From the IMG/VR virus record IMGVR_UViG_3300017721_001543, positions 1 through 28,224 of that record: a DNA stretch of 28,224 nt; one strand, given 5' to 3'. A program made the translations under genes and the position numbers. Of this stretch, positions 364-12,973 are shown in pieces. The stretch is from a virus (lineage: Duplodnaviria > Caudoviricetes). The notes beneath the pieces are model-generated. The model was not told the origin of the DNA. It searched no databases and worked only from the letters and a program-made list of their open reading frames with translations. Every line of letters begins with the position of its first letter. The first letter of the stretch is position 1.

Positions 364-373
364 TATACGTATA
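364..373. promoter_or_regulatory. Palindromic motif TATACGTATA upstream of hsp20 (phage promoter or operator)
   Basis: Perfect 10-bp palindrome. An identical copy lies at 12963-12972 in another intergenic gap. Confidence 0.5.
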
Positions 374-380
374 CATGAAT

Positions 381-407
381 ATAAAATTGCAAGTAGCTAG
401 GGCACGC
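381..407 (+). repeat. 5' arm of long-range inverted repeat flanking hsp20
   Basis: ATAAAATTGC (381-390) and GCTAGGGCACGC (396-407) are complementary to 905-914 and 893-904, with one G-T pair and an AAGTA bulge. Confidence 0.8.
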
Positions 408-429
408 GCAGTTTTTGTTTACATTAATC

Positions 430-444
430 GAGAGCTTCGGCCTC
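430..444 (+). promoter_or_regulatory. cUUCGg tetraloop hairpin in hsp20 leader
   Basis: GAG-A-GC-TTCG-GC-CTC: 5-bp stem with a bulged A, closed by the extra-stable C(UUCG)G loop, ending 15 nt before the ATG at 460. Confidence 0.55.
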
Positions 445-459
445 ACAAATTTAAATGAT

Positions 460-876
460 ATGAGTACATTATTCAATGAACGTACACCGTTCGATTTATT
501 ATTTCGCAATCTGTTCAATACAGATTCAGGGTTTCAACCAACAACGTTTGAAACTAAACAACCCCACCCACTAGATATTTTTTATGATGACAAAGGACTT
601 CATTTTGAAGTTGCCTGTACTGGTCTGACTAAAAAAGATATTCAACTTGAAATTGATGGAGATCTTTTACAGATTATCTATAATAAACCAAGTGAAGAGG
701 AAGATTATAGTGGCTATATCTATAAAGGATTAGCCAAAAGATCTTTTAATTTAGGTTATAAAGTAGCAGCTAAATTCGAACTTGAGAAATTAGAAGCAGA
801 AATGAAAGATGGTTTACTTCATTTATTTATTCCAATTGTGGAATCTAAAAAACCAAAAACAATCAAAATTAAATAA
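460..876 (+). CDS. hsp20: Small heat shock protein (Hsp20/alpha-crystallin, IbpA-like)
   Basis: PLDIFYD..LHFEVACTG, YIYKGLAKRSF, AEMKDGLLHL, and C-terminal I-x-I motif (KTIKIK). ATG at 460 is preferred over TTG at 415 because it gives a typical 138-aa size and leaves the hairpin in the UTR. Confidence 0.92.
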   Translation: MSTLFNERTPFDLLFRNLFNTDSGFQPTTFETKQPHPLDIFYDDKGLHFEVACTGLTKKDIQLEIDGDLLQIIYNKPSEEEDYSGYIYKGLAKRSFNLGYKVAAKFELEKLEAEMKDGLLHLFIPIVESKKPKTIKIK

Positions 877-892
877 AAGTTATATAAAATAA

Positions 893-914
893 GCGTGTCC
901 TAGCGCAATTTTAT
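893..914 (+). repeat. 3' arm of long-range inverted repeat flanking hsp20
   Basis: GCGTGTCCTAGC-GCAATTTTAT; its reverse complement matches 381-407. Confidence 0.8.
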
Positions 915-926
915 TTGTATATTTAC
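914..926 (+). promoter_or_regulatory. Bacteroidota-type -7 promoter element upstream of the groES-groEL unit
   Basis: TTTGTATATTTAC matches the TTCGTATATTTAC copies near 4070 and 11982. The -33 position is degenerate (CGTG). Confidence 0.5.
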
Positions 927-949
927 CGAAACAAAATATATATAAAGTT

Positions 950-1228
950 ATGGCTAAACCTAGCAAATCAAATTTAAGATTTATCAAAGATCCACAGTTA
1001 GATCCTTATTACATTCAATTAGATGATTATTGTTATATTGCTCAAAAATCCACATTTTCGGATGCTGGGCATGAATACCAAAACACTTTAGGACATTACT
1101 CTACATTAGGGGGTTGCCTTGAATGTATTGCTCGTGATGATGCCAAATCTAAGAGTTACGACTCATTAAGAAGCTTTGTAGAACGTTTCGAAGCAAAAAC
1201 ACGTGAACTAAAAACCCTTATTAAATAA
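950..1228 (+). CDS. Hypothetical phage protein (92 aa)
   Basis: Intact ORF between the promoter motif and groES; no recognised motif. Confidence 0.75.
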   Translation: MAKPSKSNLRFIKDPQLDPYYIQLDDYCYIAQKSTFSDAGHEYQNTLGHYSTLGGCLECIARDDAKSKSYDSLRSFVERFEAKTRELKTLIK

Positions 1229-1234
1229 TTAATT

Positions 1235-3149
<1,915 letters not shown>

Positions 3150-3150
<1 letters not shown>

Positions 3151-4049: not shown

Positions 4050-4082
4050 TTTGGAAATATAAATGCAAATTCGTATATTTAC
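4050..4082 (+). promoter_or_regulatory. Bacteroidota-type sigma70 promoter (-33 TTTG, 20-nt spacer, -7 TATATTTA)
   Basis: TTTG at 4050-4053 and TATATTTA at 4074-4081; same geometry at 11962-11993. Resembles the TTTG/TAnnTTTG consensus. Confidence 0.65.
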
Positions 4083-4085
4083 GCT

Positions 4086-5000
4086 ATGGTAAGAAATGAT
4101 CATACATTATTAGTTGAAAAATATCGTTCTAAAACATTAGATGATTATGTTGGGAATGAGCATATTAAAAAAACTATTAATCAATATATTTCCCAAAATG
4201 ATATTCAAAATCTTATTTTCTATGGCCCCGCTGGTACAGGTAAGACGACTTTGGCTAAACTTATTGTTAATAACCTTAATTGTGATCACCTTTATATCAA
4301 CGCAAGTGATGAAAGAGGTATCGAAACTATTAGAGATAAAGTATCCGGGTTTGCTAGCAGTGCTTCATTCAAACCACTTAAAGTGGTTATCTTGGACGAG
4401 GCGGATTTTCTTACGATACAGGCACAAGCTTCACTTCGAAATGTAATTGAAACATTTTCTCGTAGTACACGTTTTATTATGACGTGTAATTATGTTGAAC
4501 GCATTATTGATCCACTGCAATCGCGTTGTCAAGTACTTAAGGTTATCCCACCTAGTAAAGGTGATGTTGCTAAACACATTGCTTGGATTTTAGAAGAAGA
4601 AAATACTAGTTTTGAATTACAAGATATCAAAACAATTACCAACCAATTTTACCCAGATTTACGTAAATGTCTTAATACTGCTCAACTATCAACTCAGGAT
4701 AATAAATTAGTTATAGATAAATCAGTATTAGTGTCATCTAATTATATGACATCAATACTTAAAGAATTAAGTAATGCTAAACCTAAATGGCGTGAAATAC
4801 GTCAAATTATTGCTAATGCAAACGTTAGTGATTTTGAAGAGCTTTATCGTTATCTTTATGATAACGCTCATGTATATGCAAGTGGTCGTGAAGGAATGGT
4901 TGCAATTTATATTAATGAATATAGTTACCAATCCAACTTCCGCATTGATAAAGAAATAAACTGTATGGCACTTATACAGAAGTTAATTGAGTTAAAATAA
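4086..5000 (+). CDS. Clamp loader AAA+ ATPase subunit (T4 gp44/RFC small-subunit-like)
   Basis: VEKYR, Walker A GPAGTGKT, NASDERGI, Walker B ILDEAD, SRC motif LQSRC. Confidence 0.95.
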   Translation: MVRNDHTLLVEKYRSKTLDDYVGNEHIKKTINQYISQNDIQNLIFYGPAGTGKTTLAKLIVNNLNCDHLYINASDERGIETIRDKVSGFASSASFKPLKVVILDEADFLTIQAQASLRNVIETFSRSTRFIMTCNYVERIIDPLQSRCQVLKVIPPSKGDVAKHIAWILEEENTSFELQDIKTITNQFYPDLRKCLNTAQLSTQDNKLVIDKSVLVSSNYMTSILKELSNAKPKWREIRQIIANANVSDFEELYRYLYDNAHVYASGREGMVAIYINEYSYQSNFRIDKEINCMALIQKLIELK

Positions 5001-12961: not shown

Positions 12962-12973
12962 ATATACGTATAT
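12962..12973. promoter_or_regulatory. Palindrome ATATACGTATAT upstream of the RHH gene
   Basis: 12-bp perfect palindrome; core identical to 364-373. Confidence 0.5.

Follow-up and report, generated by a model that had tools for sequence, protein, structure and literature searches.

Comparative evidence for a long-range RNA clamp joining the 5' and 3' flanks of phage hsp20 genes

Functional pairing between the 5' untranslated region (UTR) and the 3' UTR of a bacterial mRNA has so far been described in a few single-gene cases. In type I toxin mRNAs of the hok/aapA kind, the 3' end of the message displaces an early 5' structure, giving the RNA two states. In Bacillus subtilis hbs, a short single-gene message of one species with a strong Shine-Dalgarno (SD) sequence and its own terminator, a 14-bp 5'/3' pairing forms a GC-containing helix away from the ribosome-binding site and limits RNase Y cleavage, which affects the stability of the message (Braun, Durand, Condon 2017, PMC5737220). 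S. aureus icaR also pairs its 5' and 3' UTRs within one mRNA, and there the helix covers the SD sequence, blocks initiation, and generates an RNase III substrate (PMC3868564). RNase III likewise cuts long-range duplexes in other mRNAs (10.1101/2023.03.12.532304). The leaders of small heat shock protein (sHsp) genes can carry ROSE elements, local structures in which the motif U(U/C)GCU, with a bulged G, pairs with the SD sequence (PMC4152365). The sHsp IbpA represses itself in a manner that depends on leader stem-loops (10.1101/2020.04.20.050740), and for this it needs R93, R97, and K98, all three, with Lys being no substitute for R93 (PMC10474464).

We analyzed a 28,224-nt stretch of DNA (the window) from a 28 kb virus record with a GC content of 29.4%, which we take to come from an uncultured marine phage; the features mapped below from 366 to 3150 lie on its + strand. 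The hsp20 gene at 460 to 876 encodes a small heat shock protein of 138 amino acids (PF00011, E value of 1.7e-11; phrog_432) and has no SD sequence, and SD-like text was present in just 8 of 63 unique hsp20 start regions. Two complementary arms enclose this gene, and we call the helix that they form the clamp. The GC-rich 12-nt 5' core (396 to 407, GCTAGGGCACGC) pairs with the 3' core (893 to 904, GCGTGTCCTAGC) over 12 bp with a single wobble, G402-U898, and an AU-rich outer helix joins 381 to 390 with 905 to 914 over 10 bp, leaving the AAGTA at 391 to 395 bulged in the closed clamp. An earlier note on this DNA had claimed these pairings and the bulge, and its coordinates proved right. The helix was present in both the minimum free energy and the centroid folds of 360 to 930 (z of -4.58; 0/100 shuffles). 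The flank duplex had an energy of -37.4 kcal/mol versus -16.8 ± 3.5 for shuffled flanks, with 0 of 2,000 shuffles reaching it. In a flank pairing scan of the window's + strand, hsp20 scored -32.2, whereas 40 other open reading frames (ORFs) averaged -11.8 and none of them scored better than -17.5. An Rfam scan of the window returned 0 matches. An additional pairing of 371 to 375 with 916 to 920 is feasible on paper, but it is probably outside the transcript, because 371 to 373 fall within the promoter-like phage motif TACGTATA (366 to 373) at which that transcript would start. The arms had further been said to sit just inside a motif at 364 to 373 and the next promoter at 918 to 925; the 3' arm in fact overlaps the next promoter-like element.

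We gathered homologous loci by protein scans and pattern scans. The first set held 80 loci plus the window, with both flanks available in 67, 58 of them unique, and in these 58 the cognate arms scored -33.5 versus -30.6 ± 0.35 for permuted arms (0/10,000). Once the set had grown to 114 loci, the 99th null percentile was exceeded by 89 of 90 distinct pairs of arms. The clamp was kept in 13 of 13 more distant loci, a count of correctly parsed loci only (seven loci, L130 to L136, were dropped because they had been parsed on an upstream ORF), and in all 39 further unique loci with 42 to 87% protein identity, which were left from 86 examined after the removal of 42 duplicates, 4 short loci, and 1 without a start. 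Some loci kept the clamp with arm sequences unrelated to those of the others (L226, L236, and L201). Across 165 loci, reaching down to 42% protein identity, there were 69 unique 12-bp cores, with 57 distinct sequences on the 5' side and 58 on the 3' side. The median clamp had 24 pairs, and the uninterrupted run was mostly 11 to 13.

Since the arms are too divergent for alignment by sequence, we used register-anchored counts; RNAalifold applied to a MAFFT alignment of the 69 full loci gave no structure. With strand-neutral scoring, the 69 unique cores contained 729 Watson-Crick, 63 G-U, 17 A-C, and 19 other pairs, in a table whose cells are not independent and in which at least three cores (L010, L087, and L128) fell on an AU-rich stretch. 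Parsimony on the protein tree gave about 10 shared changes per paired column versus 5.8 for non-partner columns, and 38 G-U changes versus 13 A-C changes, with 66 of the 69 cores anchored, 3 lacking an anchor, and some registers off. The compensatory changes at the clamp are natural ones, and the arms diverge among homologous loci yet stay paired. Pairing was better on the sense strand than on the antisense strand in 54 of the 58 unique loci, which upholds the suggestion, first made from the one G-U in the window, of an RNA helix over a DNA inverted repeat. This covariation and the excess of G-U over A-C favor an RNA helix at the hsp20 flanks that is under selection and forms on the sense strand. 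The same data bear on a DNA-level explanation, in which the arms would be inverted operators, one after the hsp20 promoter and one in the next promoter, or the ends of a mobile cassette. Both sites would suit a repressor, the 3' arm lying over a promoter-like element, but besides the preference for the sense strand and for G-U, whole arm sequences are exchanged from one subgroup to another, and separate RNA-type constraints act on the 5' arm; we regard this explanation as largely refuted and give it almost no weight.

Testing 12 T4-like hsp20 genes, from cyanophages and pelagiphages, revealed no clamp, with z no lower than -2.1; for two of these (L153 and L155), the annotated start is upstream of the likely one, and their leaders were partly tested. 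It was also not found in 24 parsed Flavobacteriaceae hsp20 genes, with 0 at -20 or below; these came from 30 loci, of which parsing failed for 6, and some of the starts used probably lie too far upstream. A single Flavobacteriaceae locus, L261, had a z of -6.4, yet its pairing came to only -18.8 kcal/mol.

Among four roles offered in the earlier note was a long-range thermosensor independent of the SD sequence, which would have to melt on heat shock, a reading that the gene class and the ROSE-like hairpins in the leader would suit. Folding at several temperatures speaks against it. In silico, the core pairing probability was at least 0.97 from 4 to 75°C, and 93 of 93 loci kept at least 10 long-range pairs at 15, 37, and 55°C with the ORF held open. 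The accessibility of the start region at 37°C was 0.63 in the closed form and 0.65 in the open form (93 loci, in silico), with a shift of more than 0.1 in only 9/93, in both directions; at 55°C, 14 of 93 were less accessible when closed. The 5' arm itself is located 53 to 79 nt upstream of the hsp20 start. Because the modeled clamp stays closed from 15 to 55°C and start accessibility is unchanged, a melting thermometer or a direct block of the start site appears unlikely, and we consider the long-range thermosensor very improbable. We also rejected an RNA thermometer that melts over the start region in the physiological range, since the in silico folds showed none, and an arrangement of the icaR type, in which the pairing blocks initiation at the SD sequence; the phage gene has no SD sequence, and its arm is distant from a start region whose accessibility does not change.

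The leader holds two local hairpins, P1 and P2, that were absent from the earlier reading. In P1, 383 to 390 pair with 408 to 415, so that the outer strand of the 5' arm (381 to 390) also serves as the 5' strand of this hairpin in the predicted folds. The 5' core lies in the P1 apex when the clamp is open (GU A GC UAGG GC AC, where the bulged A is A395 from the clamp bulge), and the P1 3' strand (408 to 415) is freed on clamp closure. P2 (430 to 444) has the sequence GAG A GC UUCG GC CUC, with a bulged A, 2 bp, and a YNNG loop. The P1 apex and P2 therefore have a motif in common, consisting of a stem, a bulged A, 2 bp, and a YNNG-type loop, and these bulged-A hairpins may resemble the MS2 coat operator. 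Because the clamp and P1 use identical bases, they are predicted to be mutually exclusive, with P1 opened by the 3' arm. In 83 of 93 unique leaders the core lay within P1, whose two strands covary (-6.5 versus -4.3 ± 0.2 permuted). Variants of the 5' arm keep the P1 pairs (U-A to C-G) while remaining G-U compatible with an unchanged 3' arm. Among the 97 unique leaders that came from protein searches alone, a set without the 49 loci of a P2-pattern search, the bulged-A motif was over the core (P1) in 69, downstream (P2) in 86, and at both places in 66, and shuffles had both in 2.9%; these figures are for a strict version of the motif, a looser version having had a null of 39%. When the P2 variant was used as a DNA pattern, 49 of 49 matches were upstream of hsp20.

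Two subgroups depart from this layout. In L140 to L143, L175 to L178, L202, L206, and L207, P2 is found 17 to 20 nt upstream of the start, with AGGAG as its 3' strand in an SD-like position; this subgroup keeps the clamp and may represent an ancestral state or a different host. In L201, L204, L236, and L238, the clamp arm is apart from the bulged-A hairpin, which is of the GACUC A CC GAAU GG GAGUC type, and it is the arm that is unrelated in sequence.

The hairpins could point to an anti-operator switch, the main rival of the reading that we prefer, which we consider possible but on the whole unlikely. P1 and P2 would be tandem protein sites, likely for free Hsp20, and bound protein would hold P1 and repress; when unfolded proteins titrate Hsp20, the 3' arm would take P1 apart and fix the message in its expressed form. 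The presence of the motif in both hairpins far above the null, the enclosure of the core by a covarying P1, and 5'-arm variants that preserve P1 are consistent with this switch, as are the self-repression of IbpA through leader stem-loops and the occurrence of two such hairpins in all 12 T4-like leaders and in Salmonella ibpA (see below). The window Hsp20 also has Arg at the position of IbpA R93. However, this position is Arg in 73/93 and Lys in 20/93 of the phage proteins and the equivalents of R97 and K98 are absent, and we rejected the phage Hsp20 as a carrier of the IbpA-type residue set of Arg93 plus Arg97/Lys98. The closed form is also favored over P1 by a median of 21 kcal/mol at 37°C, a figure in which the loop cost is probably underestimated, and because the clamp is so much more stable, protein binding could win only kinetically. 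Moreover, P1 formed at only 0.01 to 0.20 in the unconstrained fold of 378 to 892, and the strict motif was absent from 8 of 39 distant loci that keep the clamp. The anti-operator switch can be combined with a role of the clamp in mRNA lifetime. A broader proposal, which we regard as rather improbable, is that the phage clade rewired ROSE-like tandem hairpins for SD-less hosts by acquiring an anti-operator in the 3' UTR. Binding of free Hsp20, or of some protein of the host, to the nascent bulged-A hairpins would block closure, titration by clients would let the tail of the message invade P1 from about 490 nt away to form a stable expressed loop, and the time taken to transcribe the ORF would be the decision window.

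Like ROSE and IbpA leaders, the phage leader has several local hairpins in front of an sHsp gene, with a bulged purine 2 bp below the loop. It differs in that the bulged base is A and not G, mostly no SD sequence is sequestered, and a 3'-UTR arm removes one hairpin, making a long-range structure where ROSE elements are local. A ROSE thermometer was rejected for the window, whose P1 and P2 have a bulged A, no SD sequence, and no Rfam match. A close ROSE variant (CUCGCU...AGGAG) is present in the T4-like leaders L153 to L164, which in 12 of 12 cases contain exactly two bulged-purine, 2-bp hairpins (expected, 0.26 to 0.56). Nearly all of these have a bulged G, and the second is CUC G CU...AG GAG over the SD sequence. 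The Salmonella ibpA leader likewise has two such hairpins, with the same version over its SD sequence. Full-text literature searches found no description of the T4-like hairpin pairs. Fremin et al. 2023 reported 19 unnamed structured-RNA candidates within 25 nt of HSP20 genes (PMC10690425), and P1 and P2 may be among these; as its pipeline is described, it folds single intergenic regions, and pairing across an ORF is beyond its reach.

The motif to which TACGTATA belongs, TAYKTAT(A/C), preceded the 5' core in 143 of the 165 loci, with a median of 17 nt between the two, and has intergenic copies at 12965 and 27913 in the window. Its strand bias exceeded that of the control in 2 of 4 relative records. 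From this distribution we infer that it is a phage promoter and that the hsp20 transcript starts a few nucleotides downstream. In L124, a tRNA-like sequence adjoins the leader upstream and replaces the usual promoter context. The partial ORF upstream of hsp20 (1 to 363) matched, weakly, only a family of unknown function; it presumably resembles a DNA sliding clamp, and clamp-loader genes are located at 4086 and 5581. At the hsp20 start, ATG ATA TGA (455 to 463) forms a Met-Ile-stop mini-ORF that overlaps the start codon, and 81 of 121 unique start regions share the ATG at -5. Downstream of hsp20 are an ORF of 92 amino acids, groES, and groEL (950 to 3150; groEL was named from its translation). 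The 92-amino-acid ORF (950 to 1228) had no Pfam or PHROG match and lies between hsp20 and groES in many, not all, relatives. A long run of ORFs from 6697 to 27547 resembles glycosyltransferases, sugar epimerases, and aminotransferases, judged from the N termini. The promoter-like element for the genes after hsp20 (895 to 925), which overlaps the 3' arm, is of the Bacteroidota type, GTG-N20-TATATTTA, with GTG at 895 to 897, 20 nt, and TATATTTA at 918 to 925, a spacing that matches TTG-N20-TATATT at 4070 and 11982. We take the upstream TTG box and its spacing to be part of promoters of this type. The -7 box of such promoters has been described as TAnnTTTG (PMC9723704).

We found no terminator-like site between hsp20 and the 92-amino-acid ORF, groES, and groEL. 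In the 90 nt after the stop codon, 2 of 130 clade loci had a terminator-like hairpin, compared with 15 of 24 genes from hosts and 4 of 12 from T4-like phages. The clamp might accordingly be imagined as a long-loop intrinsic terminator or attenuator that forms while the polymerase is passing the 3' arm and stops it ahead of the next promoter region and groES-groEL, an idea that fits the 128 of 130 loci with no local terminator and a GC-rich core followed by U-rich sequence. The number of U residues after the core ranges from 2 to 8; of 69 cores, 39 are followed by at least 5 U within 9 nt and the other 30 by 4 or fewer, and the window has GCAA directly 3' of its core. That U-rich stretch is taken up by pairing in the outer helix, and RNA contigs run across the site, although these may be DNA; we find a terminator improbable.

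The RNA data consisted of assembled contigs with patchy cover from four oligo-dT runs of one study. No RNA run contained more than 0.25 of the words, and depth in these runs does not rank the genes. Contigs crossed both arms into the neighboring genes (X2, 303 to 514 and 839 to 1269; X8, 856 to 1006) and are read-through or DNA rather than a discrete RNA. Two runs, X1 and X8, had loose poly-A ends (9 and 13 A) behind 889, before the 3' arm. The linker at this place has up to 8 A, with A-runs of 6 to 8 in 60 of 165 loci, and internal oligo-dT priming on such a run is sufficient to explain these ends; if real, they would mean RNAs without the 3' arm. The proposal that the helix is a circularization signal, keeping the two ends together so that they could be cut and ligated to give a circular mRNA, has the right geometry, but no back-joint was seen in the four patchy contig sets and no PF09414 (Rnl2-type) ligase was found in 4 relative records, 2 of them near complete. 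In these thin data the proposal gains no support, and we judge it highly improbable.

Our preferred reading, which we put forward tentatively, is that the clamp of about 22 to 24 bp unfolds P1 and likely sets the ends and the lifetime of the hsp20 mRNA via host ribonucleases. Transcription would begin a few nucleotides past TACGTATA, and P1 and P2, as predicted and covarying hairpins, would fold in the nascent leader. Past the stop codon, the 3' arm is predicted to invade the P1 apex and to zip through the P1 5' strand. The closed form would hide the 5' end and give this terminator-less message a 3' barrier and a duplex of RNase III size, the clamp standing in for the missing terminator as the sole strong structure on the 3' side. 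The hsp20 mRNA would then be cut or trimmed, as a discrete RNA with protected ends, from read-through RNA that extends into groES-groEL. Host RNase III would be needed, because no phage RNase III was found in the 4 relative records (2 near complete). Since the start region is equally accessible in both forms, control would be on the amount of RNA and not on ribosome entry. The pairing and its exclusivity with P1 come from comparison and prediction, and we infer all later steps.

A stability clamp and an RNase III stem appear, on this modeling, to be the most likely of the four roles offered earlier. They have precedents in hbs (RNase Y) and in the long-range targets of RNase III, and the pairing is kept across a clade in which local terminators are so rare. 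However, a bulge interrupts most clamps, an unbroken run of at least 18 bp being present in only 4 of 138; a pure stability clamp leaves the specific motif of P1 unexplained; and the contigs cross both arms while the poly-A ends stop before the 3' arm.

The phage locus compares with hbs as another short single-gene message with complementary, GC-containing UTR segments that pair outside the ribosome-binding site, and by analogy with hbs the clamp may act on cleavage and stability. Unlike hbs, as that message has been described, it forms about 22 to 24 bp, is mostly without an SD sequence, has no terminator, and shows a complete exchange of arm sequences within a phage clade; its 5' arm doubles as part of a competing motif hairpin. 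It resembles the long-range RNase III targets in having a predicted duplex that spans hundreds of nucleotides, and its median of 24 pairs would come to about two helical turns, although a bulge usually splits them; unlike in the targets described, the phage 5' end seems to be promoter-derived and not cut, and cleavage in the phage is a prediction. The analogy drawn earlier with hok extends to a 3' end that displaces a 5' structure and no further, because the arm stops short of the start region. We accordingly rejected a toxin mRNA of the hok/aapA type, the gene being hsp20 and not a toxin and no start-region block being predicted.

No isolated phage with a close hsp20 was found, and the best clamp-loader matches were about 41% identical. 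Four of six GTDB hits were in Bacteroidota metagenome-assembled genomes, probably as co-binned phage contigs, and the host is presumably a member of the Bacteroidota. No bS21 was found in the 4 relatives. The earlier note knew of no such structure for phage sHsp genes, and our full-text literature searches, whose coverage takes in few subscription papers, found no account of the hsp20 clamp either; the main text of the Minerva preprint does not mention hsp.

By these comparisons, the hsp20 clamp is a variant form of the known 5'/3'-UTR pairing of hbs and icaR, one that appears real and selected. It offers a clade-wide and naturally compensated example of UTR pairing in a DNA phage, and its dozens of natural arm sequences are ready swap controls. 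The clamp bears on sHsp message control in Bacteroidota, which cannot use classical thermometers because their ribosomes do not use SD pairing. Through their common hairpin motif, the phage hsp20 leaders are tied to ROSE elements, and the motif points to a candidate RNA ligand.
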